From NCBI GenBank assembly GCA_050049875.1, contig JASFVL010000003.1, positions 1 to 55,493 of the forward strand: 55,493 bases of DNA, given 5' to 3'. Shown one piece after another: positions 1 to 50,185 of the stretch (the first letter of the stretch is position 1; the number at the start of each line of letters is the position of its first letter). A program made the position numbers and the translations under genes. The notes below the pieces were generated by a model. The model saw nothing but the letters and a program-made list of their open reading frames with translations. It was not told the origin of the DNA and did no database searches. Source of the DNA: Anaerolineales bacterium (GTDB lineage: Bacteria; Chloroflexota; Anaerolineae; Anaerolineales; UBA11858).

Positions 1-104
1 ATATCCCAACCATAGTAAACCGTAGCCATCCCACCCCTGCCTATCACGCGCTCTAGGCGAAAATTTGAGAGTCTGCGCCCGATGAGTGGATCGTTGGTGT
101 TCAT
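1..104 (-). CDS. Ser/Thr protein kinase, N-terminus only (runs off the window edge)
   Basis: Not in the ORF track. Reverse complement from ATG at 104 reads MNTNDPLIGRRLSNFRLERVIGRGGMATVYYGWD, a Hanks kinase Gly-rich loop (GxGGMAxVY). Confidence 0.85.
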   Translation of the reverse strand, partial: MNTNDPLIGRRLSNFRLERVIGRGGMATVYYGWD

Positions 105-161
105 AAATCTATTCTACACCGCATTTTTCCGTCTCAACCGACCATTCAAATTTGATAAGAG

Positions 162-215
162 TTTATGTCACTTACCCTTATATAATTAACTCACCAACCA
201 TTCGTGTGACATAAA
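162..215. promoter_or_regulatory. 10-bp inverted repeat in the divergent promoter region between the two kinases
   Basis: TTTATGTCAC (162-171) and GTGACATAAA (206-215) flank a TATAAT at 181-186. Confidence 0.35.
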
Positions 216-376
216 AATGCTTCAATCAGCTGATTTTTATATCTTCTAGAGACGATTGAACCAAACGAATATGTAAATGTCCGGAGTGATAGCATCAGAT
301 TCCGATTCAAATGGTATGAAGTCAGAGAAGTGATCGTCTTGATACAAACAATAGAGATTATTGAAAGAGTTGTTTT

Positions 377-2113
377 GTGATTTCTAAAGACTCACTACTT
401 TATCACAAACTAGATGAATACCGTATCGAAACCCTGCTTGGTAAAGGAGGCATGGCAAGGGTTTACCGGGCGCTGGATGAGCGCCTCAACCGGTATGTTG
501 CATTAAAGGTCATTGAGAAGCCATTTCGTGCAGATGCGGATTATGTAACACGTTTCGAAAGAGAAGCGCGCGCTATCGCTCGACTGGAACACGAGCATAT
601 TGTTCGGTTGTATCGCTTTGGTCAGGCAGAGGGGTTAATGTACATAGCCATGCAGTTCATTGATGGTATCAATCTTGAGAAAATCATGGACCTATACCGG
701 GCAGATGGTGAATTTATGCTCATTGAGGATATTTGCCGCATTGTCTCTGAAGTCTGTCAGGCCTTGGATTATGCTCACAGCCAAGGGGTTATTCACCGAG
801 ACTTGAAACCCTCCAATGTTATGCTTGACAAAAAAGGGAAAGTATATCTCACCGATTTTGGTTTGGCGATGCTATCTGATGTAACCACGAGGGGTCAGGT
901 TTTGGGTTCCCCACGATATGTTTCCCCAGAACAGGCGATTTCGTCTGCCAATGTCGTCCCTCAAAGCGATCTTTATTCAGTGGGTGTCATCCTCTATGAG
1001 ATGCTTACAGGTAGAGTCCCTTTCGACGGCTCCAAACCCTTAGATGTCGCCATCATGCACATCGAAGAACAGCTTCCACCTCCAAGGGAGCTGCGTCCAA
1101 GTCTCAGCACAGAACTTGAAGATATCCTGTTTAAAATTCTAAAAAAACGACCAGAAGACCGTTATCAGAGTGGTTCAGAATTTAGCGCCACCTTAGAGCA
1201 TGCCATATTCAAAGATAAAGATAGAACACAAATATCGGGAATAAGCCCATCTGACAAATCCGTAACCTTAGCGGAGCGGGTAAAATTCGAAACCGCTCTA
1301 AAGTCAGGTACTCTCAAAGAGGTAGCTTCACCACAACCTCCAGCCATAGAGGAAAGCATAGATTCGGCAACACCTTCACCGGAAAACCAAAAGTCCAAAC
1401 CACTACCCATTATGCTAGGAGCTGGGGTGCTAGCCTTGATTTTGATAGTGGTTATGTGTATTTCCCTGATCGTCCTGGTGCAGTGGGCATCTGGATTGAG
1501 AAGTCAGAACGAAATCGCAACCATTTCCCCCACCACCATGACGTCGCAGACCGTAGACATCATCCTGATTGTTAACAGAACAAAGACGCCTACCCCTTTG
1601 TTGACAGAGACTTCTTTCGCCAGTCAGAACGATAATGAAACCTTAACATCGACTATCACAGCAACAGAAACGATTCACGTAACTGAAAATATGGTCACAT
1701 CCTGGACACAAACTCCTTCTCCAACAGCTACCCAGACGGCAACTGTTATCATCTCTGATAACTTTAAAATTATCATATCAACGAAAAAAGATGACAGCTT
1801 AGTGGTTATTAATGATGGTGAAGAACCCTTTACACTGTCGCCCTTGCAGTTGGGTGACGGATCAGACGCCATAAAAGGGACGGAATGGCTGGTTAATGAC
1901 CTTCTGCCTGGAGAATGTGTGGTAGCAGTAAAAGATACGGGTCGACCCAAGCTGCCTAAGAACAAATGCGACGAAATAGGAGAGCGTATTTTCCGCTCCC
2001 AAGGAGCGCGTTTTTGGGAAGACAGTTTTAAGGTCTACTATAATGAAATCGAAATTGGTACATGTGAGCCGAACAAGAATGGCATCGAATGCGAAATAGA
2101 ATTTGGTGATTAA
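377..2113 (+). CDS. Membrane-anchored Hanks-type Ser/Thr protein kinase
   Basis: GKGGMARVY, VALK, HRDLKPSN, DFG and SPE motifs; one TM helix; Thr-rich linker; Cys-containing extracellular domain. Confidence 0.95.
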   Translation: MISKDSLLYHKLDEYRIETLLGKGGMARVYRALDERLNRYVALKVIEKPFRADADYVTRFEREARAIARLEHEHIVRLYRFGQAEGLMYIAMQFIDGINLEKIMDLYRADGEFMLIEDICRIVSEVCQALDYAHSQGVIHRDLKPSNVMLDKKGKVYLTDFGLAMLSDVTTRGQVLGSPRYVSPEQAISSANVVPQSDLYSVGVILYEMLTGRVPFDGSKPLDVAIMHIEEQLPPPRELRPSLSTELEDILFKILKKRPEDRYQSGSEFSATLEHAIFKDKDRTQISGISPSDKSVTLAERVKFETALKSGTLKEVASPQPPAIEESIDSATPSPENQKSKPLPIMLGAGVLALILIVVMCISLIVLVQWASGLRSQNEIATISPTTMTSQTVDIILIVNRTKTPTPLLTETSFASQNDNETLTSTITATETIHVTENMVTSWTQTPSPTATQTATVIISDNFKIIISTKKDDSLVVINDGEEPFTLSPLQLGDGSDAIKGTEWLVNDLLPGECVVAVKDTGRPKLPKNKCDEIGERIFRSQGARFWEDSFKVYYNEIEIGTCEPNKNGIECEIEFGD

Positions 2114-3274
2114 ATGAAATTTGAGACTAAATCCATCCATGCTGGGCAGGAACCCGACCCGAGCACAGGGGCGGTGATGACCCCCATTTATCAGACTTCG
2201 ACCTACAAACAAGATGGGATCGGTCGCCATCGCGGTTATGAATATTCCCGCACCAGAAATCCCACTCGAACCGCTTTGGAGGGGTGCATCGCCACCTTGG
2301 AAAACGGGATTCTCGGGCTAGCTTTCGCCTCGGGGATGGCAGCCACCGACGCTGTCCTTAGACTGCTGGAGCCGGGAGATCACATCTTGGCTGGAAATGA
2401 TGTATATGGCGGTACCTATCGACTTTTCGATAAAGAGTTCCGGCGCTACAGTCTGGAATTCACTTATGTGGACACTACAAACATAAGTGAAGTGAAGGCG
2501 GGGTTGCGTTCCAATACCCGCTTGGTTTGGTTGGAAAGCCCCACAAACCCCCTTCTAAGCGTAACGGATATTCGCAAGGTTGCAGATGCCGTCCATAACC
2601 ACAACACCAATGTCCTGTTGACTGTTGATAACACCTTTGCCACGCCTTACCTGCAGAGACCATTAGATTTAGGGGCCGATATCGTCTTACATTCAACCAC
2701 AAAATATCTAGGGGGACACTCCGATGTGGTTGGTGGGGTGCTGGTGAGCAAGTCCACCCAACTGCACGAACGTTTAGCCTTTCTGCAAAATGCTGTAGGG
2801 GCTGTGCCGGGACCAATGGATTGTTATCTGGTCTTAAGGGGGATAAAAACATTGCCGGTGCGAATGGACCGCCACGCCCGGAACGCCGCTGTGGTAGCAG
2901 AATTCTTAGCTGCCCATCCTAAAGTTGTCAAAATCCTTTATCCCTTCCACCCCACTCACCCTCAGGTGGAGATCGCTCGTCAGCAGATGCGTAATGGAGG
3001 GGGGATGGTCTCTTTTGTGCTCGAGGGAGGAGCGCAAAGTGCTGCACAGGTCGCAGAAAATACACACATTTTCACCTTAGCTGAATCCCTGGGCAGTGTG
3101 GAATCGTTGATCGAGGTGCCCGCAGCGATGACTCATGCATCGACTGCTGATTCCCCCTTGGCCGTTAACCCAGGACTCGTACGCCTTTCCGTCGGTCTAG
3201 AACATATCGACGACTTAATCACAGACCTGGAGAATGCACTGGATTATTCGTCGAACAGAACTGTCTCCTCTTGA
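2114..3274 (+). CDS. Cystathionine gamma-lyase/gamma-synthase family PLP enzyme
   Basis: YEYSRTRNPTR, FASGMAA, DNTFATP, HSTTKYLGGHSD (PLP Lys), AESLGSVESL, RLSVGLE. Confidence 0.95.
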   Translation: MKFETKSIHAGQEPDPSTGAVMTPIYQTSTYKQDGIGRHRGYEYSRTRNPTRTALEGCIATLENGILGLAFASGMAATDAVLRLLEPGDHILAGNDVYGGTYRLFDKEFRRYSLEFTYVDTTNISEVKAGLRSNTRLVWLESPTNPLLSVTDIRKVADAVHNHNTNVLLTVDNTFATPYLQRPLDLGADIVLHSTTKYLGGHSDVVGGVLVSKSTQLHERLAFLQNAVGAVPGPMDCYLVLRGIKTLPVRMDRHARNAAVVAEFLAAHPKVVKILYPFHPTHPQVEIARQQMRNGGGMVSFVLEGGAQSAAQVAENTHIFTLAESLGSVESLIEVPAAMTHASTADSPLAVNPGLVRLSVGLEHIDDLITDLENALDYSSNRTVSS

Positions 3275-4080
3275 TAATGGCGTACACCCCTGCGTGCAAG
3301 ACGTTCCTGCAGCCATTGGGCTAGAGCTGCGTTCTTTTCGGAGAGAGATTGACCCTTTTTCAAATCAGCCAGAGGGTAGTTTAAACGCAGAGCTCGGGGG
3401 GAGATCATAAAACGGGTGATCCCTGCGGGAATCCGCAACCCTTCAGAAGCTAACTTAAGGATTTCATCCAGTTTAAATATCGGGTAGACGATCAAACCAC
3501 TAAAACGGTCATATAAATTCGTCAACGATTCTGCAGTGTCAACGGTAGTGCGGTCCATCATAGCGCGCTGTTTATAACTATCAACAATGGCATTCAGCAG
3601 GCTGCCTCGTCTGGCAAGATCCCCCAATTCAGTACAGAGGTCATAACCCCGCTTCTCGGACAGGAGCACTCTCGCCATACAATCGCTAAAGCTCAATTCC
3701 GGATCATCTTTGCCTGGATCAATCTCCCGTAAGTTCAAGCCGGCAATCGCACTTAAACCATCTAACAAAGCGCGCGATTCCAACCCCCAAACGACATGAT
3801 TCCATGCTCTCAGCCTCAGACCGGGATTGACAGACTCAACCACCTGGACAACGATGTGAGGACAGCCAATCATCTGGAAAGCTGCAGTGCGATTAGCACC
3901 ATCCAAGACCACATAGCGCGCTTGGTCATCACTCAAAGGGGTCACCACGGGAGGATTTCTCAAAAAACCATCGGAGTCCAGACTCTTAATTAATGGCAAT
4001 ACACGCTGCTGGTCATGCTGTTCGTGCGGAAGCAATTGCGCAACGGGGAGAATTTTAAGTGTTGGTAGAAATGGTGGCAT
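3244..4080 (-). CDS. ParB/sulfiredoxin-fold protein, SbnI/SerK-like putative free L-serine kinase
   Basis: LLPHE(20), RNPPVV, YVVLD(60)GANR, W-N-H, PAGITRFMISPRALRLNYPL and C-terminal RHYQEETVLFDE match the S. aureus SbnI motifs as I recall them. Confidence 0.75.
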   Translation of the reverse strand: MPPFLPTLKILPVAQLLPHEQHDQQRVLPLIKSLDSDGFLRNPPVVTPLSDDQARYVVLDGANRTAAFQMIGCPHIVVQVVESVNPGLRLRAWNHVVWGLESRALLDGLSAIAGLNLREIDPGKDDPELSFSDCMARVLLSEKRGYDLCTELGDLARRGSLLNAIVDSYKQRAMMDRTTVDTAESLTNLYDRFSGLIVYPIFKLDEILKLASEGLRIPAGITRFMISPRALRLNYPLADLKKGQSLSEKNAALAQWLQERLARRGVRHYQEETVLFDE

Positions 4081-4195
4081 AGCAATTTTTCAAATATACA
4101 AAAGATCTATTACTGACCTTTAGCCCTATTCAGTCAGATGTTGAACTTATTGAAATTTTATCGTAAAGCGGGCGTATTATAACCGCAGAGGGAAA

Positions 4196-5617
4196 TTATA
4201 TCTCATGGGCGATGAAATCGAGTACATCGATTTTCGTTAGTAAGCCAACGGGGCGCTCCGCTTCTGTCACCAAAATCACGGGCTCCTCGACAAATTGAGA
4301 CAGAACATCCCCAATGGGGGTTTGAGCCGAATAACTGGATGGTGCAGGTTGAATGATGGTTTTAATAGTTTCATCCGGCGTATGCTCGTGTTCAGAGCTC
4401 ATCATATGTTTGAGTAGATCTACCTCAGTCACTAGACCAGCAAGAGAACCGTCACGCTTAAGTACAGGAGCCTGGGAGATATCATTCTCTTTTAAAAGTG
4501 TGATCACATCTACCATGCGGTCCTCAGCGGAGACGGTTATCAAACCGGGAAGAGTTTTGTTGGCTAAGACCTCGCCCAAAGTAATTTCGCGCCACTCTGC
4601 TTCCAGGAATCCGTTCTCGCGCATCCATTTATCATCAAAAACCTTTGATAAGTAGCGCGATCCAGAGTCAGGTAGCACCACCACAACTAAACGCTTAGAG
4701 TCTAAGCCTTGAGCGTAACGTAAGGCACCAGCTAACGCGGAGCCTGAAGATCCGCCACAGAAGATTCCCTCTTCCTTGACTAATCGACGTGCCCATTGAA
4801 ATGATTCCTTATCCGAAACCCGCAACACTTCGTCCAGGATTGAGAGTTCCAAAGTTGTCGGCAGGAAATCCTCACCGATACCTTCCACTTTATAAGGCGT
4901 CGCGGTGACCTCCGGGGGAAAATCTCCTTGCTGCCAAGCTTCCAGCAAGATGGATCCCGCGGGATCAACCCCGATAATGCGGATGTCCGGATTTTGCTCC
5001 TTGAGGTAGCGACCCGCACCCGTAGCAGTCCCACCTGTACCCATACCCAAAACCACGTCGGTAACTTTACCTTGTGTCTGATCCCATATCTCTGGCCCGG
5101 TCGTCAAGTAATGGCTGTGGGGATTCTCTGGATTATGGTACTGGTTGGCAAGGATTGCATTTGGCGTTTCGGAAACAATGCGCTTCGCCACACTGTAATA
5201 GGAACGGGGATCGTCGGGGGATACTGCCGTAGGCGTGATCACTACCCTGGCACCGTAAGCCCGTAGAAATTGGATCTTTTCCTGGCTCATTTTATCCGGC
5301 ATCACGAAAACCGACTTGTAGCCTTTAATCGCACAAACAATCGCCAACCCAACGCCGGTATTTCCGGAGGTAGCCTCCACAACGGTTCCACCGGGTTTCA
5401 GACGCCCACTCTCTTCAGCTTCGGTGATCATATTGAATGCAATGCGGTCTTTTACTGAGCCGCCCGGGTTGAAAAACTCCAATTTGGCGTACAAAGGGCA
5501 TGGCAATCCTTGTGCCACCCGATTCAATCGTACCAAAGGAGTTCTGCCGATGGTCTGCAGGATGTTTTCATATACTCGAACCGAATCAGATACTCCTAAA
5601 ATATTACTTTCCTTCAT
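4196..5617 (-). CDS. cbs: Cystathionine beta-synthase with C-terminal CBS (Bateman) domain
   Basis: NPGGSVKDR (PLP Lys), TSGNTG, NQYHNP, GMGTGGT, EGIGEDF, PDSGSRYLSK, then a CBS-domain pair (ISQAPV ... GLLTKID). Confidence 0.92.
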   Translation of the reverse strand: MKESNILGVSDSVRVYENILQTIGRTPLVRLNRVAQGLPCPLYAKLEFFNPGGSVKDRIAFNMITEAEESGRLKPGGTVVEATSGNTGVGLAIVCAIKGYKSVFVMPDKMSQEKIQFLRAYGARVVITPTAVSPDDPRSYYSVAKRIVSETPNAILANQYHNPENPHSHYLTTGPEIWDQTQGKVTDVVLGMGTGGTATGAGRYLKEQNPDIRIIGVDPAGSILLEAWQQGDFPPEVTATPYKVEGIGEDFLPTTLELSILDEVLRVSDKESFQWARRLVKEEGIFCGGSSGSALAGALRYAQGLDSKRLVVVVLPDSGSRYLSKVFDDKWMRENGFLEAEWREITLGEVLANKTLPGLITVSAEDRMVDVITLLKENDISQAPVLKRDGSLAGLVTEVDLLKHMMSSEHEHTPDETIKTIIQPAPSSYSAQTPIGDVLSQFVEEPVILVTEAERPVGLLTKIDVLDFIAHEI

Positions 5618-5643
5618 GGTATTTCTATCTCTTTAATATCAAT

Positions 5644-5697
5644 CGTTGGTTATAAAACAAACCACCCGTATGAACCAACGGGGGGGTAATGGTTTGT
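5644..5697 (-). promoter_or_regulatory. Terminator-like hairpin with an alternative pairing in the cbs leader
   Basis: On the + strand ACAAACCA (5657-64) pairs with TGGTTTGT (5690-97) and CCCGT with ACGGG. A U-run follows on the minus strand. CGTTGGTT (5644-51) can alternatively pair with AACCAACG (5673-80). Confidence 0.4.
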
Positions 5698-5892
5698 ATT
5701 ATTGCTCCAAATAAGGTAATAATTCATGGATATTCAAGATTAATTTTATCATGACTGTGTGAATTGATATAACTACTTCCTCATGTAGAGGGTGGGGAAT
5801 CCCTCCCTAGAAGCACCTTTTTTCAGGGTATTCAATCATGCAATGCAATAATTATACGAGCATCATTTTCGGCGGTTGAATGAATATTAAGC

Positions 5893-6195
5893 TACGCTTA
5901 TTGTCACGGTAACGATGGGCGCGGCGGCACGCACTTCATGCACATGCAGGTCATGGAAGCGCCTGATATCCGCTATGAGGCGCTAAGAGGTGAAGCAGAA
6001 GAGCACAGCAACGGAGGTCACGGGGATGATGAACATGATGATGAGCAGAGCGATTACGACCTGACAGATTTCCGAAGGGCGATGGTCAAGGGAGTCCACC
6101 CCGGCGTTGAGCCGCTCAGTGATGATATGTCCCGCTGGGAAATGAGCGACCTGGACTTAGCCGACCTATTTAAGTTTATCCAAAGTTTAGATTAA
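5893..6195 (+). pseudogene. Cytochrome c remnant (5'-truncated, degenerate heme motif)
   Basis: In frame upstream of the 5938 ORF is YAYCHGNDGRGG; TAC in place of TGC turns CxxCH into YxxCH. There is an in-frame stop at 5881 and no signal peptide. The C-terminus LSDDMSRWEMSDLDLADLFKFIQSL is a class I cytochrome c end. Confidence 0.65.
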
Positions 6196-6271
6196 AGAAT
6201 CCCCATTAACTGGGTGGTGGTTAATAACAAGATACATTGAGAGCAGTGTTTATACGGCGCATCTTTTTGTT

Positions 6272-6463
6272 CTAAGGTTTCAACTTTTTAACCCGGTCAC
6301 CGATCACGGAAACGCTCCGAGGAGGCACCCCGACTTCATCAGTAGGTTGTACCCACATCTCGAACGGAAGACGAGTGGGTAGGGTTATGTGCGCTTCATC
6401 AGGTTGGATATGCTGAAGAGCAGTAGTAATCGCGCGAAAGGCTTCCTCAGTGTCGTTCAAACC
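6272..6463 (-). pseudogene. Internal fragment of a radical SAM protein
   Basis: GLNDTEEAFRAITTALQHIQPDEAHITLPTRLPFEMWVQP resembles the GLND...RPP C-terminal region of COG0731-type radical SAM proteins. No CxxxCxxC and no proper N-terminus. Confidence 0.55.
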
Positions 6464-6464
6464 A

Positions 6465-7238
6465 CTATAACGATCCTCCAGCATTCTCATTGAAACCCGG
6501 TTTTGTGACTGTAACCAGGCGTACTCCGGCGCGGTGCATCTGACGGAAATTGCCCGCTTGGCAAATTATTTGGAGCACCGGATCAATCGCCGTCACTACC
6601 GACCCGCAAAGGAGATCGAACCCATAATCAAACAGCAAGGGACTAAGAGGAACGCTGGGGCCGATGAGTATCATCAATGCCCGGGGTGAACAAAGGTCTA
6701 GCAACGATTCCAAAGTGTGATTGATTAATGTCATCCCAGTGATGGCAACGACCTCCGCGGTGGGTATCACTGCTGGAGCAGCAGTGTCCGGAAGATCACC
6801 CTTTTCCGGATCGCGTTCCAATACTATCAACTCCCCCACACGTTGCCTCAAACGTGGGACAAATGGGAATTCCCCTATGAGGACGACCGACTTTCCTGCT
6901 CCCTTTTCAGCGATAACCTCCTCAGCGTTCATATCCACCCAGAGTTCAGGTTGTGGAGGGATCAATGCATTAATCGCTGCAACCCCCACGCTCGCTAAGG
7001 TGGGCAGCTCGGATTGAGCAAATCTCGCCAAGGTTAACCCAGACATGTTTGCCAATTGACCTGATTGAGGCACATCTGGTATGCCGTGGTGGTGTTCTTT
7101 GGCGTGAAGGGTCGACGCCAGACCGCAGCGTCTTACGCCATCTGACTCGACCACTACCCCCGTCCAATGCAGTCCAATACAAACCTGAAGGACCTCTAAA
7201 TCAGGAAGCGTAGAGATCAAATCATCCAGAATACCCAT
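6465..7238 (-). CDS. DUF364-family Rossmann-like protein (putative metal/pterin binding)
   Basis: IGLHWTGV, CGLAST, GVAAINAL, IGEFPF, ITGMTLINHT, GPSVPLSP. Confidence 0.85.
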   Translation of the reverse strand: MGILDDLISTLPDLEVLQVCIGLHWTGVVVESDGVRRCGLASTLHAKEHHHGIPDVPQSGQLANMSGLTLARFAQSELPTLASVGVAAINALIPPQPELWVDMNAEEVIAEKGAGKSVVLIGEFPFVPRLRQRVGELIVLERDPEKGDLPDTAAPAVIPTAEVVAITGMTLINHTLESLLDLCSPRALMILIGPSVPLSPLLFDYGFDLLCGSVVTAIDPVLQIICQAGNFRQMHRAGVRLVTVTKPGFNENAGGSL

Positions 7239-7326
7239 TTCTCTTTACCCCGCTTCTTCACGATATCAACCAACGACCCGGACTCGCCCAGCTAGGGGAT
7301 CATAATACCATTCAAGAGAACCAGCA

Positions 7327-7704
7327 TCAATGATGGTCATGCCCGTGTTCTAGGCTATCCCTGCACGGCTGAGCACCGCGCAGTTGACCATCCAGGTATC
7401 CCTCCAGTGCACTCCGCACCGTTCCGGAAGCACCGGTGGCAATCTCGATGCCATATTGTTGGAAAAATCCAATTGCCCGTCGACCCATCCCACCACTGAG
7501 CATCACATCCACGCCGTGACCATGGATAAACTCCGGTACCATCCCTGGCTGGTGCCGCTCGAAAAATGGATTGTCCAATTCTTTAACGACTTGAACTTCT
7601 TGATTCTCTACATCCACCAATACATAATAGGGACAACGGCCAAAATGATGGCTTACCAGGCTGTCCAGTCCGTTTTTGTCCTCGGATGAAATTGCGATAC
7701 GCAT
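7327..7704 (-). CDS. NifB/NifX-family Mo-Fe cluster-binding (orange-protein-like) protein
   Basis: RIAIS, HHFGRCPYY, GGMGRRA, His-rich tail. Confidence 0.88.
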   Translation of the reverse strand: MRIAISSEDKNGLDSLVSHHFGRCPYYVLVDVENQEVQVVKELDNPFFERHQPGMVPEFIHGHGVDVMLSGGMGRRAIGFFQQYGIEIATGASGTVRSALEGYLDGQLRGAQPCRDSLEHGHDHH

Positions 7705-7705
7705 A

Positions 7706-8008
7706 TTAATTCTCCTTGTTGATTAAATTTGTTAATTCCTCAGCTGCTATGTAACCCGTGACCTTAATGCACTGCTCCTTAACCCCAGGTACTCCAGCAA
7801 CCGCTTGTTTGATCTGCTTAACCAAAAATACAGCAATCGGGCAAAGCGGTGAAGAGGGACGGAATGTATATTTGACCCGGCCTCCCGATTCTACCGATAG
7901 ATTCTCGACCAGCCGCATACGCATCACATCTGCGTTGGTCTCGGGGTCAATGACCAACCGCAGGCGTTCATGAATAGCCTCTAGTAATCTGGTCGATTCT
8001 AATTGCAT
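7706..8008 (-). CDS. DUF59/MIP18 (SufT-like) Fe-S assembly protein
   Basis: VIDPET...MRLV...PSSPLCPIA motif; start placed at ATG 8008. Confidence 0.85.
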   Translation of the reverse strand: MQLESTRLLEAIHERLRLVIDPETNADVMRMRLVENLSVESGGRVKYTFRPSSPLCPIAVFLVKQIKQAVAGVPGVKEQCIKVTGYIAAEELTNLINKEN

Positions 8009-8010
8009 TC

Positions 8011-8925
8011 CTACACCGACTCCTTCAGCAAGTTGTTTAATCGTTCCCAAATCGCTTGTACGGCCCTGCTGGCGGAGCTGTCGGGTTGGAAAGCTGTCAC
8101 TACTTGACCTCGAACCATAGAATCAGTCACTATTTCATCAAAAGGTATGCACCCAATGAATTCGATACTATGATCCTGGCAGTAAGTCTTGATTTCCGTC
8201 ACAGCCGGAGGATAAAGATCAGCTTTATTGACACAGACCAACGATCGAATACCGAAGTGGTCTGTGGTATGAAAAACCCGCTGCATATCGTGTAACCCTG
8301 ACATCGTCGGCTCTGCAACAATCAACGCCAAATCTGCCCCTGAGGCAGCAGAGATCACCGGGCAACCAATACCGGGCGGTCCATCTATAATCACCAGAGA
8401 ATAACCCTCATCTAAAGCGAATAATCTGGCGCGCTGCTTGACCAATGTAACCAACTTTCCTGAATTCTCTTGAGCCGGACGAAGTTCGGCGTGGAACAAG
8501 GGACCATAACAGCTCATCGATTGAAACCACTTGCCGACAACTTGATCTTGCATGCTAATGGCACCTTCTGGGCATTGATATACACACGCTGCGCAGCCAT
8601 CGCAAGCAATTGGATCAATATCGAAAAAGGTGTTCTCAAACTCAGAAATATGTATTGCATCGAAGCGGCAAACTCGCTCGCACTCACCACAACCTGTGCA
8701 GGCAGTTGGTTCAATCACTGCGATTTGGCCGCCCCAGAATTGTTCTGTTTTCAGGATTTGTGGATCTAACAAAAGTTCCAGATTGGCCGCATCCACGTCT
8801 GCATCAGCTAGCACGGTCGACATGGGATATGAACCAGTTTCAGCTAGATGTGCAAAGGCTGCTGTCAAGCTGGTTTTGCCAGTTCCCCCTTTACCGCTGA
8901 GGATCACGAGTTGTTGCATGTCCAT
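8011..8925 (-). CDS. MinD-superfamily P-loop ATPase with inserted 2x[4Fe-4S] ferredoxin domain
   Basis: SGKGGTGKT, DADVDAANL, CTGCGECERVC and CDGCAACVYQC, ENSGKLV, DGPPGIGCPV. Confidence 0.92.
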   Translation of the reverse strand: MDMQQLVILSGKGGTGKTSLTAAFAHLAETGSYPMSTVLADADVDAANLELLLDPQILKTEQFWGGQIAVIEPTACTGCGECERVCRFDAIHISEFENTFFDIDPIACDGCAACVYQCPEGAISMQDQVVGKWFQSMSCYGPLFHAELRPAQENSGKLVTLVKQRARLFALDEGYSLVIIDGPPGIGCPVISAASGADLALIVAEPTMSGLHDMQRVFHTTDHFGIRSLVCVNKADLYPPAVTEIKTYCQDHSIEFIGCIPFDEIVTDSMVRGQVVTAFQPDSSASRAVQAIWERLNNLLKESV

Positions 8926-8940
8926 ATGTATCGAACAATC

Positions 8941-9825
8941 TCATCCTTGAGAGGATTGGGATAACTCGGAAGTCATTGTTTCCACGCTAATCAGTGAAAG
9001 GATGTTGGTATACATATTCCGGAAATCAGAAATATATTCAGGAAAAGCCATGGTCAATACTGTCCCACTAGCTAGGACTTCCGCGATACGGCGATCCATG
9101 GGGATACGCATAAGGATCGGCAACCCCAAACTCCAACAATAGTCATCTACATCTGAATTTCCAATTCCATCCCGGTTTATGACGACTCCTGCGGGGATAT
9201 TGAGCTCTCGTACAACCTGGACAGCCAATTTCAAATCGTGCAAGCCAAACGGGGTCGGCTCCGTGACCAAAATGACGAAGTCCGATCCTCGAATGGTTTC
9301 GACAACCGGGCAAGATGTACCAGGTGGTGCGTCCTTAATGATCAAATGACTGGATGGAAAGGGACCCCAACGCTTAAGCTGACGGATGACAGGCACTGCC
9401 ATCGGTTGACCTACATTAAGCACTCCTTGAGCAAAGCCAATCCCAGTAACCGCTCGCCCTCTTTTTAATATTCCTAATGTTTTTGGCTTCTCAGAAATAG
9501 CGTTCTCCGGACAGTTCAGCGTGCAACTTCCACAGCCGTGACATAACTCGGGGAAGACCAGTACATTACCAGCTAAGACCACAATAGCGTGATATTGGCA
9601 AATCTCAGCACAGCGTCCACAACCAGTACAACGCCCCTCATTCACAACAGGGACCAAGAGATCGACATCTTGACGCTGTTCGATATTTGGATAAAGGAAT
9701 AGGTGCGCGTTGGGCGCCTCGACATCGCAATCGAGAAAAGTAACAGCATTGGTTACCATCGCAAGGCTGGTTGCTATCGTGGTTTTGCCGGTACCGCCTT
9801 TACCGCTGGCTACTGTTATGATCAC
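8941..9825 (-). CDS. MinD-superfamily P-loop ATPase with inserted ferredoxin domain (partner paralogue)
   Basis: SGKGGTGKT, DCDVEAPN, CTGCGRCAEIC and CHGCGSCTLNC, DAPPGTSCPV, EPTPFGLHDL. Confidence 0.92.
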   Translation of the reverse strand: MIITVASGKGGTGKTTIATSLAMVTNAVTFLDCDVEAPNAHLFLYPNIEQRQDVDLLVPVVNEGRCTGCGRCAEICQYHAIVVLAGNVLVFPELCHGCGSCTLNCPENAISEKPKTLGILKRGRAVTGIGFAQGVLNVGQPMAVPVIRQLKRWGPFPSSHLIIKDAPPGTSCPVVETIRGSDFVILVTEPTPFGLHDLKLAVQVVRELNIPAGVVINRDGIGNSDVDDYCWSLGLPILMRIPMDRRIAEVLASGTVLTMAFPEYISDFRNMYTNILSLISVETMTSELSQSSQG

Positions 9826-9876
9826 AACTTACCTACCACCAAGACCCTGAAGACCACAGTCCACTGATTTCGCGGG

Positions 9877-10209
9877 CTAACTAACCGGTATGAGTTGCCC
9901 AGCTTGGTATGCTTCAACCAAGGTATCAACTTGAGCCTGGTGGGCTTTAAATAGTTCAATTCCAACCGCCTCTAAGGCAGATTGAGCTTTAGGGCCAAAC
10001 CTGCCACTGATGACAACCTCAACATCTTGGTTGGTGATGAATTGAGCTGCCCGAGTACCGGCTCCGCCTAAAGATTGGTTTGCCGGGTTGGGTAAGGCAT
10101 TCCAATTCCCAGTATCTGTATCAAAGATGATGAAAAAAGCGCAGCGACCAAATCGGGGATCAATGGGCGCATCGGAACGAGCTTCAACAGCAGAAATAGC
10201 GATTTTCAT
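9877..10209 (-). CDS. NifB/NifX-family (orange-protein-like) protein
   Basis: KIAIS, DPRFGRC, GGAG, GRFGPKA. Confidence 0.88.
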   Translation of the reverse strand: MKIAISAVEARSDAPIDPRFGRCAFFIIFDTDTGNWNALPNPANQSLGGAGTRAAQFITNQDVEVVISGRFGPKAQSALEAVGIELFKAHQAQVDTLVEAYQAGQLIPVS

Positions 10210-22780: not shown

Positions 22781-25700
22781 ATGGACGAACGCCAACGTCT
22801 AGAGCAAGCGATTGCAACCCAAGAAAGTTTGCGTGGCATGGTCGCCGATGAGATCATCAATGCGACCATCTCAGCTTTGCGCAAACAATTAGAGCAGGTG
22901 ACTGCAGCCGCTGGCAAACAACGTAAGCTGGTCTCGGTCCTTTTCACCGATGTCGTCCATTCAACCGTAATGGTGCGCGATCTCGATCCGGAAGAGAACT
23001 TGGAGATCATGGACAATGCTCTCAAACAATTGGCGATCCCTGTGGAAGAGCACGGCGGGAGGGTTACCCGCTTCATGGGGGACGGTTTCAAGGCGGTCTT
23101 CGGTGCCCCGGTAGCACACGAAAACGACCCCGAGATGGCGGTGCGGGCAGGCTTGAGCATCCTAGAAATTTCCAAGAGACTGGCTAGCGAACTTGAAGCC
23201 CAGAGAGGCATCCACAACTTCCAAGTGAGGGTGGGGATCAACACTGGTTTGGCAGCCATAGGCGGCATGACGGAGGCTGAGGATACCCTGATGGGCAGTC
23301 CAGTCAACCTCGCCAAACGGGTAGAAAGCGCTGCATCGCCAGGCAGTTTATTCATATCGCACAACACCTACCAGCACGTACGCGGCGTTTTTAACGTCGA
23401 AATACAAGATCCCATTCAGGCGAAAGGCTTTACCGAGCCCGTACGGGTCTACAGGGTATTGGCAGCCAAGCAGCACGCGTTCCGCATGCGCACACGCGGT
23501 GTAGAGGGGATCGAGACCCGCATGGTGGGCAGGCAGGCTGAACTGCTCACCCTGCAGAACGCCTACCAGGATGCCCTCCGGGGAGAAAAGACGCAGATCG
23601 TCACCGTGATCGGCGAAGCCGGCGTGGGTAAGTCACGCTTGCTGTACGAATTTCAAAACTGGCTCGAACTCACACCAGAGGATATCTTCTTCTTACAAGG
23701 ATATGCCAGACAAGAAACCCAACACCTGCCTTATGCTTTATTAAGAGATGTGTTTGCCTTTCGCTTCCAGATACAAGAGAGCGACGACGCCCGTGAGGTG
23801 TGGAAAAAAGTAGAAAGAGGCTTCAGTGAAGTGCTGGGAGACAATGAAGATTTTGAGATGCGCGCTCATATTATGGGGCAGCTTCTCGGATTCGACTTCA
23901 GCGAGAGCCAGCACCTCAAGGGTGTGCTGGAAAATCCTAAGCAATTGCGAGAGCGTTCCTTTACATATCTAAAAGAGTACATTGAAACGGTATCCCAGCG
24001 ACACCCCATGGTAGTTCTCTTGGAAGACATCCACTGGGGGGATAACAGTTCTTTGGAGATGCTCAACCGCTTTATCCACAAGCTTCCAAAACAGCGCTTG
24101 TTGATCGTTTTTCTGGCTCGTCACAGGTTGTTTGATCGCTATCCAGAATGGGGGCAGGGTTTAGATCATCACACCCGCTTATCTCTAGAACCACTGTCTC
24201 AACAGAACTGCAACGACCTGGTGGATGAAATCCTCAAATTAACCCATGAAGTCCCGGCTTCACTGCGCGATACGGTTGTAAGCAACGCTGAAGGGAACCC
24301 CTATTACGTCGAAGAACTGATCAAGATGCTGATCGAAGACGGCGTCATCCTCACTGGTGAAGAGCGTTGGTGGATTCAACCAGAGCGTCTAACCGAGGTA
24401 AAAATCCCTCCTACCCTGACCAATGTACTGCAAGCGCGCTTGGACAGCCTGCCCCCCCAGGAAGGCAAGACTCTGCAGCAAGCCTCGGTCGTGGGGCGCA
24501 CCTTCTGGGATCGGATTGTGGCATATATTGAAGGTAAGAGTGGTGAACCTGTAGACCAGCAGCAAGTTACAAACACTTTGTTCGATTTGCAGGGCAGGGA
24601 GATGATCTACAGGCAACCGAACTCAGCTTTTGCCGGGGCTGGGGAGTACAACTTCAAGCACGCCATCCTGCGTGAAGTCACCTATGAGAGCGTCTTGCTG
24701 CGACAGCGGCATGAATATCACAGTCTCGTGGCTGATTGGTTGATCGAACATGCTTATGACAGAGTCGCTGAGTACGCCGGTTTGATCGCCGACCACTTGG
24801 AGGTGGCGGGGAGAACAGAGCGTGCTATACAATACCTGCTCAAGGCTGGGGAGCGCGCGTCCCAGAGTTACGCCAACATCGAAGCGGTTGATTACTTCTC
24901 ACGAGCCATCAAGTTGGCAGAAAAAGAACCCCCTGATATTAACTGTCTTGCCAAACTGCACCGGGGTCGTGGCCTGACCAGCGAGTCGATGGGCGATTTC
25001 GAGCAAGCGCGCAACGACCACGAAACGATCTTGAAACTAGCCCACCGCGCGGATGAGAGGCAGATTGAATGGCAAGCGCTGATCGACTTGGGCAGGTTAT
25101 GGGCCTCGCGCGACTACAACCAAACGCAGAACTATTTCCAGAAAGCACTAAAACTAAGCCGCAAGTTAACCGATCCAGCCGCCACTGCTGTCAGTTTAAA
25201 TTGGATGGGCAATTGGTACTTAAATACTGACAATCCAGATAAAGCAATTGCCTATCATCTGGAAGCGCTTGAGATCACCGAACAGTTGGGTAACCCACGA
25301 GACCTGGCGAACACCCTGGATTTGTTGGGTATTGCCTATATGTTTAGAGGTGATTCAAGCAGCAGCGTTGAATGCTACAATCAAGCAATCGCGCTTTATA
25401 GGGAATTGGATGACCGTCCGAGTTTGGTTTCCAGCTTGATTGGGCATGGACATAATGGGTGCGCAATGTTGACGTATCTTACACTAGTACAGGCGATCAC
25501 ACTTAAGGAAGCGGGGAATGATTTTGAAGAGGCGCTTGGCATTGCCCGAGAGATTGGCTCTCTTCCTGACGAAATCTGGGCACTTTGGTCCCTGGGTTTA
25601 CTCTATCTAGCGCAGGGCCAGTTTGGGCAAGCCTTGGAGGCCACTCAAAGGGGGCTTCGCATTGCTACCGATATCGAACATCGCGAGTTTATTGTATGGA

Positions 25701-26350
25701 ATCGTTCTGTCCTCGGGGAATTGCACCTGGCTTTGTTAAGGCCTGAAGAAGCGCGCCAGCAGTTCGAAAAAGGCTTGAGCTTTTCCAAAGAATTAAAATC
25801 CAATCAGGCGAGCTATATCACAACTGGCGGTTTGTCAAAAGCACTTTTGTTGTTAGGTGAACTAAACGCCGCTCAAACTTATCTGGATAGCGTTCTCTCC
25901 TCGCAAACACCGATGAATAATATGAATATCCGCTATTGTTGGGCGATACAGGCAGAACTGGCGCTTGAACAAGGTGATCCGGTTACGGCGCTGGACATTG
26001 CTGACCGATTAATAGAATCAGCTCATGGTATGTCATCTGGGGTTGTGATCACCTTTCTCTGGAAACTGCGTGGGGAGGCTTTTGCCGCTCTGGGACAAAT
26101 CGACGAAGCTGAATCTTTGCTGCGAGCTGCTATGGAAAACGCTCAGGCGAATGGAGAGCGATATTTATTGTGGTCTATCCATGCTAGCTTGGGCAAACTC
26201 TACGAAACTGCTGGAAAACAAACCGAAGCCGTTCACGAGTTATCAACGGCGAAAGAGCTCATCCAAGAGTTAGCCGATACCGTACCCAATGGATTGTTGA
26301 GGGACAACTTTCTCCGGCGCGCAAATGAAAGGCTCAGATCCTCACCATAG
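22781..26350 (+). CDS. Adenylate/guanylate cyclase - STAND (AAA_16) ATPase - TPR protein
   Basis: FTDVVHST, FMGDG, VGINTG, VNLAKR; Walker A GEAGVGKS; Walker B LLEDIHW; EGNPYY; YNFKH; TPR repeats. Confidence 0.92.
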   Translation: MDERQRLEQAIATQESLRGMVADEIINATISALRKQLEQVTAAAGKQRKLVSVLFTDVVHSTVMVRDLDPEENLEIMDNALKQLAIPVEEHGGRVTRFMGDGFKAVFGAPVAHENDPEMAVRAGLSILEISKRLASELEAQRGIHNFQVRVGINTGLAAIGGMTEAEDTLMGSPVNLAKRVESAASPGSLFISHNTYQHVRGVFNVEIQDPIQAKGFTEPVRVYRVLAAKQHAFRMRTRGVEGIETRMVGRQAELLTLQNAYQDALRGEKTQIVTVIGEAGVGKSRLLYEFQNWLELTPEDIFFLQGYARQETQHLPYALLRDVFAFRFQIQESDDAREVWKKVERGFSEVLGDNEDFEMRAHIMGQLLGFDFSESQHLKGVLENPKQLRERSFTYLKEYIETVSQRHPMVVLLEDIHWGDNSSLEMLNRFIHKLPKQRLLIVFLARHRLFDRYPEWGQGLDHHTRLSLEPLSQQNCNDLVDEILKLTHEVPASLRDTVVSNAEGNPYYVEELIKMLIEDGVILTGEERWWIQPERLTEVKIPPTLTNVLQARLDSLPPQEGKTLQQASVVGRTFWDRIVAYIEGKSGEPVDQQQVTNTLFDLQGREMIYRQPNSAFAGAGEYNFKHAILREVTYESVLLRQRHEYHSLVADWLIEHAYDRVAEYAGLIADHLEVAGRTERAIQYLLKAGERASQSYANIEAVDYFSRAIKLAEKEPPDINCLAKLHRGRGLTSESMGDFEQARNDHETILKLAHRADERQIEWQALIDLGRLWASRDYNQTQNYFQKALKLSRKLTDPAATAVSLNWMGNWYLNTDNPDKAIAYHLEALEITEQLGNPRDLANTLDLLGIAYMFRGDSSSSVECYNQAIALYRELDDRPSLVSSLIGHGHNGCAMLTYLTLVQAITLKEAGNDFEEALGIAREIGSLPDEIWALWSLGLLYLAQGQFGQALEATQRGLRIATDIEHREFIVWNRSVLGELHLALLRPEEARQQFEKGLSFSKELKSNQASYITTGGLSKALLLLGELNAAQTYLDSVLSSQTPMNNMNIRYCWAIQAELALEQGDPVTALDIADRLIESAHGMSSGVVITFLWKLRGEAFAALGQIDEAESLLRAAMENAQANGERYLLWSIHASLGKLYETAGKQTEAVHELSTAKELIQELADTVPNGLLRDNFLRRANERLRSSP

Positions 26351-44052: not shown

Positions 44053-44565
44053 ATGACTCGAAAAGTCTTTCTCGTCATCGCAGTGATACTCATTCTCTTC
44101 GCAGCTTGGGCGGTGATCACTAGAATGCGCGTTTACGCCGCTCCTGAACAGCCGCTCAAGTACAGCCATCGAGTTCATGTAGAGGCGGGCATTCAGTGTT
44201 TGTACTGCCACCCCAACGCATTGCGCTCCACAGTGGCTGGTGTGCCCTCCGTCCAGAAGTGTATGGGATGTCATGAGGTGATCGCTACCGACAACCCAGT
44301 AGTGGTAGAGCTGACTGGTTACTGGGAGAGGGGGGAACCCGTCCCATGGAAACGGGTCAACCTGCAGCCTGATTTCGTTTATTTCAGCCACCAACCCCAC
44401 ATGGGGGCGGGGATGAGTTGCGAGAGCTGCCATGGTGCAGTCGGACAGATGGACGCGGTCCAACCGGTTTACAAGATGGACATGGGTTGGTGCTTGGACT
44501 GTCATTTGGAACAACCCGAGGAAAAAGTCGCTCGATTAGCTGACTGCCTAATCTGCCACAAATAG
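44053..44565 (+). CDS. actA: Membrane-anchored pentaheme cytochrome c (ActA/QrcA-like)
   Basis: N-terminal TM, PEQPLKYSH, CLYCH, CMGCH, YFSH, CESCH, MGWCLDCH, CLICH. Confidence 0.88.
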   Translation: MTRKVFLVIAVILILFAAWAVITRMRVYAAPEQPLKYSHRVHVEAGIQCLYCHPNALRSTVAGVPSVQKCMGCHEVIATDNPVVVELTGYWERGEPVPWKRVNLQPDFVYFSHQPHMGAGMSCESCHGAVGQMDAVQPVYKMDMGWCLDCHLEQPEEKVARLADCLICHK

Positions 44566-44662
44566 GAACTAACCCGAGCTGACCCACAAAATTCCGACCG
44601 GCCTCCCGCTATAGAGGGGCTTAGCTGCTTGACCATAAGACAAAAGACGAATTAAAGAAATA

Positions 44663-49026: not shown

Positions 49027-49138
49027 CACGAAATATTTTGATATTTATGACTGGAATAAAAGAAGGTAACCCAAAAATGCGAGAGGGCGATAGAACCATT
49101 CGATAACAATGAATGAAATATCTAAATGGTGAAAAAGT

Positions 49139-50172: not shown

Positions 50173-50185
50173 GGATACACCAGTT

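Follow-up and report, generated by a model that had tools for sequence, protein, structure and literature searches.

What does a gene that resembles free-serine kinases do when it lies between the genes of a cystathionine beta-synthase (CBS) and a cystathionine lyase-like enzyme? The question is raised by a 55,493-nucleotide stretch of DNA, which we refer to as the window. The DNA comes from a wetland Chloroflexi bacterium. A preliminary description had read the 278-aa product as a relative of SbnI and SerK that probably supplies O-phospho-L-serine (OPS) to the neighboring CBS. The layout it gave agrees with the coordinates (Table 1): the 278-aa gene follows cbs on the same strand after 115 bp, and its 3' end shares 31 bp (3244-3274) with that of the convergent lyase-like gene. 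Within the spacer, neither terminator-like nor promoter-like sites were reported, and there were no Rfam matches within positions 1-9000. The 278-aa gene is probably co-transcribed with cbs; a single metatranscriptome contig (151 nt, 95% identical) that spans 4072-4222, across the spacer, gives a weak hint of this.

Table 1. Features of the cbs locus, in window coordinates.
Feature	Position	Strand	Family or model matches
Cys/Met-metabolism PLP enzyme, 386 aa, cystathionine gamma-lyase/gamma-synthase type, convergent	2114..3274	+	PF01053, NF005871
SbnI/SerK-family gene, 278 aa, putative L-serine / O-phospho-L-serine phosphotransferase, two-domain ParB/Srx fold	3244..4080	-	
Spacer between cbs and SbnI/SerK-family gene, 115 bp	4081..4195	-	
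cbs, cystathionine beta-synthase, 473 aa	4196..5617	-	TIGR01137, PF00291, PF00571

By sequence, fold and catalytic residues, the 278-aa gene is a genuine SbnI/SerK-family member, as had been claimed. Among NCBIfam profiles, its product matched SbnI (NF033589) with an E-value of 2.5e-24 and SerK (NF053625) with 1.3e-8; the respective scores of 86 and 34.3 bits are far under the equivalog cut-offs of 350 and 380, and the protein therefore represents a separate subfamily and not an ortholog of either. Searches against PDB using phmmer returned SbnI (E-values 1.6e-15 and 2e-13, the latter match covering residues 5-261) and SerK (8e-4 to 7e-2). When an AlphaFold2 model (pLDDT 88.2, pTM 0.84) was compared using Foldseek, ranks 1-9 were three SbnI and six SerK chains (TM 0.63-0.82 over 233-269 columns), and the matches below them (ParB, Noc and Srx) covered only the N-domain, about 80 residues. 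The SerK structures matched include E30A and E30Q mutants, entries that imply a catalytic role for SerK Glu30.

The motifs quoted in the preliminary description are all present in the translation at the numbering given: H19-E20, L59-D60-G61-A62-N63-R64, P218 to L233 (PAGITRFMISPRALRL) and R267 to E278 (RHYQEETVLFDE). Their positions are mostly invariant, both in an alignment of 20 homologs and in 89 family members. Across these 89, E20, D60 and about 25 other residues do not vary, and H19, E20, D60, G61, A62, R64, R223, R229, K249, R267, Y269 and E271 are kept in every sequence, including eight fused forms. In the PDB phmmer alignment, Glu20 aligns with Glu20 of SbnI and Asp60 with its Asp58, which we take to be the catalytic residues of that enzyme.

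The prediction that annotation pipelines would label such genes ParB-like or hypothetical held for NCBI, which calls relatives “ParB N-terminal domain-containing” or hypothetical, but not for JGI, which names some of them (8 among the 120 relatives listed) “L-serine kinase (ATP) / ParB family ... regulator”. Could the protein be a ParB-like DNA-binding regulator of the cbs and lyase genes, in line with the second role reported for SbnI, and not a metabolic enzyme? Its N-domain has the ParB/Srx fold, its gene lies between both potential targets, and NCBIfam titles SbnI a [quoted passage not shown]. We nevertheless consider this role very unlikely, given that none of 89 members shows a change in the catalytic residues, that all eight long forms examined are fused to the dehydrogenase SerA, which favors an enzyme, that CBS is not near most family members, and that a Pfam scan of the 278-aa protein (E <= 0.01) found neither a helix-turn-helix nor another DNA-binding domain. 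The same scan returned no family at all, including DUF1015 (PF06245).

We surveyed 251 Anaerolineae genomes (MAGs), of which 92 carry the SbnI/SerK-like family. In 21 of these 92, the domain is part of a 560-920-aa frame, and each of the eight long forms retrieved has a D-2-hydroxyacid dehydrogenase (short SerA) fused at its N-terminus; this dehydrogenase part is best matched by positions 1-310 of the phosphoglycerate dehydrogenase model and lacks the regulatory domain (3/3 tested). Two of the eight fusions carry an extra N-terminal serine/threonine-dehydratase-like PLP domain, and an AGXT/SerC-like aminotransferase is encoded directly upstream of two. Similarly, a search for longer homologs gave four matches, all of them SerA fusions.

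The serine pathway also appears in the relation of the family to DUF1015, which has an SbnI-like fold and rescued an E. coli serB mutant, according to the available text of the source (PMC13759103). The two are almost mutually exclusive: 82 class genomes hold only the SbnI/SerK-like family, 89 only DUF1015, 10 both and 70 neither, counts that, like all our cross-tabulations of class genomes, are uncorrected for phylogeny. The complementarity is also seen within individual families (f2, f6, f12 and f22). Canonical SerB exceeded its cut-off in 1 of the 251 genomes. The 70 genomes without either of the two imply that the class possesses a further phosphatase, one that the source genome could contain as well. 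Either the family or DUF1015, but not both, occurs in 39 of the 41 CBS-positive genomes, with the family in 33 and DUF1015 in 6, a preference that a plain SerB-like role fails to explain. Overall, the family is tied more closely to the serine pathway than to CBS.

In the source genome, which is 88% complete, we found no cysE, as the preliminary description had expected, and no cysK/cysM. The window CBS is its only CysK/CysM/CBS-family match over cut-off (the next best CysK-family match scores 69.7 bits) and its sole CysK/CysM/SbnA-like match, with no sbnA-like gene besides; a Pfam search of the 53 window ORFs found no IucA/IucC or other siderophore family, and the earlier remark that sbnA and siderophore genes are missing from the window thus stands. 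The genome likewise returned no canonical SerB over cut-off, no canonical SerC (only two AGXT-type class-V aminotransferases), no DUF1015 match and no SepRS. A short SerA of 325 aa is encoded elsewhere; the 278-aa gene adjoins neither serA nor an aminotransferase gene, its neighbor being cbs. The SAH hydrolase AhcY is present (658 bits). A canonical CBS, a convergent gamma-lyase/synthase and an SAH hydrolase, in a genome where cysE, cysK/cysM and SerB were not found, together suggest that the cluster is a reverse-transsulfuration unit.

The convergent 386-aa protein matches PF01053 (Cys_Met_Meta_PP) over its full length (E 8.9e-149). Its best NCBIfam model is NF005871, “cystathionine gamma-synthase” (561.7 bits, cut-off 513), and all other lyase and synthase models fall under their cut-offs; lyase and synthase are not separable by sequence in this enzyme. 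That only a gamma-synthase model is passed would fit a 278-aa kinase for another hydroxy-amino acid, such as L-homoserine, which would give O-phosphohomoserine to this neighbor. Plants use O-phosphohomoserine for the cystathionine gamma-synthase step. Such a substrate seems extremely improbable, as the fusions join a serine-pathway dehydrogenase and not homoserine enzymes, and SerK is reported, in the available text of its description (PMC5120207), to act on neither threonine nor homoserine.

The route put forward in the preliminary description starts from a kinase that phosphorylates free L-serine; CBS would then convert OPS and homocysteine to cystathionine and Pi, and/or OPS and sulfide to cysteine, and the lyase would free cysteine, all independently of CysE and driven by ATP. 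Beyond the established kinase family, the genomic setting is consistent with such a route. The two genes are co-oriented across the short spacer with its lack of a terminator-like site, and the proposed linkage recurs in relatives. CBS lies directly upstream of the kinase-like gene in 22 of the 70 assessable related loci (80 were looked at), and in 13 of these 22 the lyase gene follows downstream in convergent orientation. Within the class, the family is present in 33 of the 41 CBS-positive genomes vs 59 of the 210 CBS-negative ones; the genes adjoin in 9 of the 33 genomes having both, with four families represented, and in a quick IQ-TREE search, which puts the window protein on a long branch, this adjacency is basal in the standalone clade. 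The family occurs in 30 of the 136 genomes with cysE, a lower share than among those without it (62 of 115). All nine adjacency genomes lack cysE, and in six of them CBS is the sole CysK/CysM/CBS-type match. There is also biochemical precedent: in the available texts, Thermococcus makes cysteine from serine by way of OPS (PMC5120207), and a Trichomonas cysteine synthase accepts other thiols with OPS (PMC5739422).

The CBS itself argues against this route. It is a typical member of TIGR01137 (551.3 bits vs a cut-off of 510.25) and has PALP (PF00291) and CBS (PF00571) domains. Its alignment to human CBS begins at human residue 72, and among solved structures its nearest relative is Rv1077, the Cbs of M. 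tuberculosis (E 2e-115), with which it has the GxGEDF loop in common. As far as the available text of its paper goes, the M. tuberculosis enzyme forms cystathionine from serine and homocysteine and none from O-acetylserine and homocysteine; OPS is absent from that text and was apparently never assayed on the enzyme, a point in favor of OPS feeding. When 33 CBS sequences from genomes with the kinase family were compared with 9 from genomes without it, one column discriminated between them (I19/V), and the motifs SVKDR, TSGNTG, NQY, GTGGT, EGIGEDF and GGSxG were identical. A CBS loop longer by three residues likewise occurs whether or not the genome carries the kinase-like gene. OPS sulfhydrylases bind the phosphate through a basic residue, Arg297 in Aeropyrum and Lys188 in Thermococcus CysK (PMC5120207, available text), and OPS-type insertions would be expected as well. 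Compared with M. tuberculosis Cbs, the window CBS has an identical loop before GIGEDF, in which there is no basic residue. The window CBS looks like a canonical, heme-less, Bateman-domain enzyme with no specificity signature, and we infer by analogy with its closest characterized relative that it uses L-serine.

Three further observations weigh against OPS feeding. The SerA pathway by itself already passes through OPS and needs no SerA-kinase fusion for its supply; no fusion or adjacency to a CysK/CysM-type enzyme was found in the 80 loci or among the longer homologs; and DUF1015 stands in place of the family in six CBS-positive genomes. The claim that the kinase feeds OPS to CBS is thus unsupported, and we think the route unlikely. 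The same holds for its extension to cysE-less Anaerolineae in general, where OPS, and not O-acetylserine or free serine, would be the activated three-carbon donor and the kinase, alone or SerA-fused, would feed a Bateman-domain CBS; this too appears doubtful.

Alternatively, the enzyme may be a purely catabolic serine kinase, converting imported serine to 3-phosphoglycerate by way of OPS and 3-phosphohydroxypyruvate, as proposed for archaeal SerK, and with its position beside cbs metabolically meaningless. The SerA fusions and the aminotransferase neighbor mirror the serK-PGDH-aminotransferase neighborhoods of Desulfurococcales (PMC5120207, available text), the triple fusion with a dehydratase-like domain suggests breakdown of serine, and 48 of the 70 assessable loci contain no CBS and have housekeeping neighbors such as RluA, DegV and RecA. 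However, the CBS co-occurrence and the adjacency repeated across several families are unexpected without coupling, and exclusion of the serB-complementing DUF1015 would not be expected either, which makes a purely catabolic kinase quite improbable.

We give roughly even chances to a reading that joins both links, in which the 278-aa enzyme would carry out the serine/OPS step of the phosphorylated serine pathway in a genome lacking cysE, cysK and SerB, coupled to reverse transsulfuration. The Anaerolineae clade would act at the step between serine and OPS, while homocysteine and serine would be converted to cystathionine and then cysteine by CBS followed by the gamma-lyase/synthase; an enzyme controlling the serine/OPS pool would be built into the reverse-transsulfuration unit. 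Both the substrate pair and the direction of flux are what we infer from homology. The kinase direction has biochemical precedent, and replacement of phosphoserine phosphatase, as proposed for DUF1015 “SerBK”, is equally compatible.

To our knowledge, the free-serine kinases characterized so far come solely from the staphylococcal siderophore cluster and a handful of hyperthermophilic archaea. Our analysis adds a large bacterial clade of true SbnI/SerK-family members, comprising at least 538 species genomes. In the literature searched, we found neither the SerA fusion, nor the near-perfect exclusion of DUF1015/SerBK, nor the statistical and positional tie to CBS. It now becomes testable what substitutes for phosphoserine phosphatase in Chloroflexi, whether SbnI-fold “SerB replacements” are kinases running in reverse, and how Anaerolineae without cysE and cysK synthesize cysteine. 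If the CBS takes phosphoserine, this would be a new way into transsulfuration, not known to be described for any CBS; if it does not, reverse transsulfuration at this locus would be of the ordinary kind, and the unusual part would be the serine-pathway enzyme attached to it. Most likely, the 278-aa gene handles a serine/phosphoserine step feeding cysteine synthesis, rather than new chemistry.

Among known systems, SbnI of S. aureus and S. pseudintermedius (PDB 5uje, 5ujd and 6nr6) is the best match in both sequence and fold (E 1.6e-15, TM 0.72-0.82, residues 5-261), with the same two-domain architecture and the aligned Glu20/Asp58 pair. It differs in its low identity (23-25%, with the profile score of 86 bits against 350), in its sbnA/sbnB and siderophore context, not found around the 278-aa gene, and in the conserved extra C-terminal motif, R267-E278, of the 278-aa protein. 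Archaeal SerK (Thermococcus kodakarensis TK0378; PDB 5x0b and others) has the same fold (TM 0.63-0.77) at 14-15% identity. According to the available text of the 2016 paper (PMC5120207), it is a kinase of free serine on a path to cysteine in which phosphorylation takes the place of acetylation, and it works with an OPS-dependent CysK; serK of Desulfurococcales adjoins PGDH and aminotransferase genes, which matches the SerA-fused forms found here, and clear-cut SerK homologs were not found in bacteria. The partner here, in contrast, is a Bateman-domain CBS with a gamma-lyase, not an OPS sulfhydrylase.

SerBK (DUF1015), with its SbnI-like fold, is encoded with serA/serC in genomes without SerB, as described in the available text of GapMind 2026 (PMC13759103). 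The family studied here is also serA-linked (8/8 long forms fused, aminotransferase in 2/8) and belongs to a SerB-poor class, but the 278-aa protein has no PF06245 match, and SerBK is known by complementation whereas our family is known from sequence. The O-acetylserine-dependent CBS of Firmicutes, which has no Bateman domain and uses the CysE product, shows that a CBS-type enzyme from bacteria can need activated serine; we found no phosphoserine-dependent CBS in the literature searched. Reverse transsulfuration in M. tuberculosis differs in that no SbnI-like gene is reported in it. Its Cbs Rv1077, the closest solved CBS, is heme-less and carries a Bateman module like the window CBS, and the mycobacterial likeness extends to the 386-aa enzyme, which passes a model built on a mycobacterial-type gamma-synthase.

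The three genes of the cysteine cluster are arranged as in the preliminary description (Table). In the ORF list, the kinase-like gene, encoding a 278-aa protein similar to the kinases SbnI and SerK, lies 115 bp downstream of the cystathionine beta-synthase (CBS) gene on the same strand, and its 3' end shares 31 bp (3244-3274) with that of the 386-aa gene, which is convergent to it. The motifs ascribed to its product were likewise recovered at their residue numbers, and most of their positions do not vary among 20 aligned sequences. A search of window 1-9000 for a riboswitch or leader 5' of cbs returned zero Rfam matches (E ≤ 0.1), and a promoter and terminator scan gave site counts at the shuffle level. 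Metatranscriptome contigs of 151-338 nt from four wetland runs (X14, X15, X18 and X19) matched segments of each of the three genes with ≥99% identity, and one contig, 95% identical, covered window 4072-4222. Since no contig joined two genes with 31 letters in each, and DNA may be present in RNA libraries, co-transcription is not established.

Coordinates of the cysteine-cluster genes in the window and of fusion and CysM-like genes at loci from related genomes (L-numbers)
Feature	Location	Strand	Remarks
Cys/Met-metabolism PLP enzyme (lyase/synthase), 386 aa	2114..3274	+	ORF list; NF005871 'cystathionine gamma-synthase' is the sole model over cut-off
Kinase-like gene, 278 aa	3244..4080	-	ORF list
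Cystathionine beta-synthase (CBS), 473 aa	4196..5617	-	TIGR01137, 551 bits (cut-off 510); PLP domain and CBS domain
Triple fusion: PLP domain, then short PGDH, then SbnI-like domain	L096:3365-6121	-	
Triple fusion: PLP domain, then short PGDH, then SbnI-like domain	L097:1296-4037	+	
CysM-like gene	L102:1399-2454		Adjoins JAMM 'desampylase'-like gene
CysM-like gene	L103:1465-2583		
CysM-like gene	L104:1348-2382		Adjoins rhodanese-MoeB/MoeZ-like adenylyltransferase

Other features surround the cluster. A 578-aa Ser/Thr protein kinase with a long Ser/Thr/Pro-rich tail is encoded at 377-2113 (+; Pkinase E = 1.1e-52), and its gene stops one base 5' of the lyase-gene ATG (2114), which suggests that the two are translationally coupled; no homolog was present in any of 80 related loci. 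Upstream of cbs, a same-strand run of genes (6465-10209, -) encodes a DUF364/DUF4213 'heavy-metal chelation' protein, two NifX/NifB-like Nitro_FeMo-Co proteins, an FeS_assembly_P protein and two MinD/Mrp-type ATPases with 4Fe-4S domains, and is an Fe-S or cofactor-maturation cluster beside cysteine-making genes. Farther away, the window holds a 1189-aa protein with an adenylate/guanylate cyclase domain, an AAA_16 ATPase and MalT-like TPR repeats (22781-26350, +), and an Alternative-Complex-III-like cluster (44053-51280, +) comprising a multiheme cytochrome c7, a molybdopterin oxidoreductase, a 4Fe-4S protein, NrfD, ActD and two cytochromes c.

The 278-aa protein had no Pfam match. Among NCBIfam models, it matched SbnI (E = 2.5e-24) and archaeal SerK (E = 1.3e-8), both with scores far under the equivalog cut-offs. 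Sequence searches of solved structures retrieved SbnI (E = 1.6e-15 and 2e-13, the second aligned over residues 5-261), as well as SerK and its Pyrococcus homolog (E = 8e-4 to 7e-2). When an AlphaFold2 model built from the alignment (pLDDT 88.2, pTM 0.84) was compared with the PDB by Foldseek, the top nine matches were three SbnI and six SerK chains (TM 0.63-0.82 over 233-269 columns), followed by ParB, Noc and sulfiredoxin, whose coverage was limited to the N-domain of roughly 80 residues. The structural match whose absence would have spoken against the preliminary description was thus found, and that description is not refuted on this ground. Glu20 and Asp60 align with Glu20 and Asp58 of SbnI, both reportedly required for its activity according to the SbnI paper; the matched SerK structures include E30A/E30Q mutants.

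A protein search recovered at least 420 relatives, of which 120 were listed. Among these 120, identity was 43-51%, save for the query's own cluster and one relative at 82%, and those named by organism came from Anaerolineales or other Chloroflexota MAGs. Five of the 120 carried the NCBI label 'ParB N-terminal domain-containing protein' and eight the JGI label 'L-serine kinase (ATP) / ParB family transcriptional regulator, heme-responsive regulator'. With one genome per species, relatives were encoded in at least 538 of 599 pattern-matching stretches, and 92 of 251 genomes sampled evenly across the class Anaerolineae had the family (79 of 188 high-quality ones). Additional copies were seen occasionally: locus L033 has a tandem duplicate (1262-2089 and 2098-2925), and L016:7416-7598 and G163:C8:34853-35188 are C-terminal fragments of a second SbnI-like copy, one with an in-frame TGA. 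A candidate second copy in the window's own genome, a weak match on contig C551, proved to be of the ParB/Spo0J type rather than SbnI-like.

Among the best 80 of the at least 538 loci, 22 had the CBS gene immediately upstream in the same orientation, corresponding to 22 of 70 assessable loci once 10 whose upstream sequence was shorter than 1.5 kb were set aside. The lyase gene was convergent and downstream in 13 of these 22, with the tight placement of the window in four or five; the remaining loci had housekeeping neighbors. ORF clustering covered 73 of the 80 loci (in the other seven, the SbnI-like gene was not recovered by ORF calling). The upstream neighbors were an RluA-type pseudouridine synthase (24 loci) and DegV (26 loci), and those downstream included a 125-aa protein of no known family (39 loci), PD40 beta-propeller proteins, ABC transporters and RecA. 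In 39 of the 73 clustered loci, the gene for the 125-aa protein (e.g., L077:6880-7257) comes immediately 3' of the SbnI-like gene and shares its strand; it is absent from the window. Its product, which matched neither Pfam nor NCBIfam models, may be a partner for the kinase-like protein. A quick maximum-likelihood tree placed the CBS-adjacent members basally in the standalone clade and within a single mixed clade, with the window protein on a long branch. Adjacency was missing from two large derived clades and required at least seven changes on this tree; it is probably ancestral.

The tie to CBS was also evident across the 251 class genomes, in which CBS was called by TIGR01137 at E ≤ 1e-120 and cysE at E ≤ 1e-45. 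The kinase-like family was carried by 33 of 41 CBS-positive versus 59 of 210 CBS-negative genomes (odds ratio 10.6, uncorrected), and 12 of the 14 taxonomic families containing CBS-positive genomes had a genome carrying both. In 9 of the 33 genomes that have both, over four families, CBS and the kinase-like gene were adjacent. Conversely, the kinase-like family was rarer with cysE, which was found in 136 genomes: 30 of 136 cysE-positive versus 62 of 115 cysE-negative genomes carried it. None of the nine adjacency genomes had cysE, and in six of them CBS was the sole CysK/CysM/CBS-type match (E ≤ 1e-60). The family is thus tied to CBS by co-occurrence and recurrent adjacency. The preliminary description proposed that the kinase-like protein probably makes O-phospho-L-serine (OPS) and that the neighboring CBS consumes it with homocysteine or sulfide, a model that accounts well for the tie to CBS and for the inverse relation to cysE.

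The CBS sequence, however, gave this model no support. The closest solved relative of the window enzyme is M. tuberculosis Cbs (E = 2e-115), and its alignment to human CBS starts at human residue 72, indicating that the heme region is lacking. Mycobacterial Cbs converts serine and homocysteine to cystathionine and does not use O-acetylserine with homocysteine, and the word 'phosphoserine' is absent from that text (PMC9232105). We compared three groups of CBS sequences: 22 encoded next to the kinase-like gene, after exclusion of one truncated locus; 11 from genomes whose copy is non-adjacent or fused; and nine from genomes lacking the family. A single column (I19/V) told carriers from non-carriers, the motifs SVKDR, TSGNTG, NQY, GTGGT, EGIGEDF and GGSxG were identical in all three groups, and a slightly longer loop before GIGEDF also occurred in some non-carriers. 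Candidate specificity-determining positions were accordingly rejected, and the sequence of this CBS bears no mark of a phosphoserine enzyme, although this evidence is weak because substrate preference may shift without obvious signatures.

The sharpest pattern among the cross-tabulations was the relation to DUF1015. According to Price and colleagues, this protein ('SerBK', a proposed alternative to the phosphoserine phosphatase SerB) occurs in serA/serC operons of SerB-less genomes, complements a serB mutant of E. coli and has a fold closest to SbnI; whether it acts as a reverse-running kinase was left undecided there (PMC13759103). DUF1015 was present in 99 of the 251 genomes: 10 had both, 82 the kinase-like family only, 89 DUF1015 only and 70 neither (odds ratio 0.10). 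The two were complementary genome by genome within taxonomic families f2, f6, f12 and f22, and overlapped in families f17 and f24. Of the 41 CBS-positive genomes, 33 had the kinase-like family only, six DUF1015 only, none both and two neither. Canonical SerB exceeded its cut-off in just one of the 251 genomes, so its absence is uninformative and was dropped as evidence.

Fusions pointed to the same part of metabolism. Frames of 560-920 aa held 21 of the 92 class-survey matches, and all eight long frames fetched were fused to an N-terminal D-2-hydroxyacid dehydrogenase. The best NCBIfam model for this domain was phosphoglycerate dehydrogenase (positions 1 to about 310; three of three tested), corresponding to SerA minus the regulatory domain. 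Similarly, the four longer homologs in the protein database were all SerA fusions, and a weak search found none of the four fused to CBS or CysK. Two of the eight fusions (913 and 918 aa) carry an additional N-terminal fold-type II PLP domain, best matched by threo-3-hydroxyaspartate ammonia-lyase and serine/threonine dehydratase models; these triple fusions are possible single-chain serine-utilization enzymes. Two of the eight have an AGXT/SerC-like class-V aminotransferase directly upstream, one also with a second short PGDH. Invariance of the putative catalytic residues extends to the SerA-fused domains, which argues that the fused domain is an enzyme and not a degenerate regulatory module.

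The window's own genome (4.6 Mb, 579 contigs, 88% complete) yielded no cysE (best 66 bits versus a cut-off of 211), no cysteine synthase besides CBS (next best 70 bits), no match to SerB or DUF1015 and no canonical SerC; these absences are provisional because the MAG is incomplete. It encodes SAH hydrolase (658 bits), a short SerA of 325 aa on a separate contig (C46), two AGXT-type aminotransferases and two additional Cys/Met PLP enzymes. SepRS/SepCysS was rejected as an OPS consumer, as SepRS was unmatched in this genome; the Chloroflexi SepRS described in PMC5424206 belong to Dehalococcoidia. In three of three examined genomes with the kinase-like family but neither cysE nor CBS, the sole cysteine synthase was CysM-like (TIGR01138, 382-386 bits versus a cut-off of 394). 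This setting, with the neighboring genes in L102 and L104, resembles the OPS-using CysO/CysM thiocarboxylate route of M. tuberculosis. Many genomes lacking the family also have cysteine-synthase matches solely of a lower-scoring type (best E about 1e-90 to 1e-110) typical of CysM-like proteins, so that no dependence on the kinase-like protein follows.

Overall, three independent lines tie the family to the serine/phosphoserine node: homology to two known free-serine kinases, SerA fusion with an aminotransferase neighbor, and displacement by DUF1015/SerBK. OPS as the substrate of CBS leaves the SerA fusions and the DUF1015 exclusion unexplained, and we consider it unlikely. About half of our confidence goes to the reading that needs the least new chemistry, in which the 278-aa protein would perform the Ser/OPS step in a class without SerB. 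CBS would then be a large serine consumer where cysteine comes only via reverse transsulfuration, and would hence be linked to the Ser/OPS enzyme. A purely catabolic kinase, a regulator and a kinase for another substrate jointly take the remaining weight. The literature searched, outside which most subscription papers lie, contained neither a bacterial SbnI/SerK-like clade this large nor the SerA fusion, DUF1015 exclusion or CBS tie of the family. The fold, the kinase family and the logic of Ser -> OPS -> Cys are already known, and some pipelines attach the SbnI label. The arrangement of SerA fusion and aminotransferase matches the neighborhood of serK in Desulfurococcales, as described by Makino et al. 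(PMC5120207).
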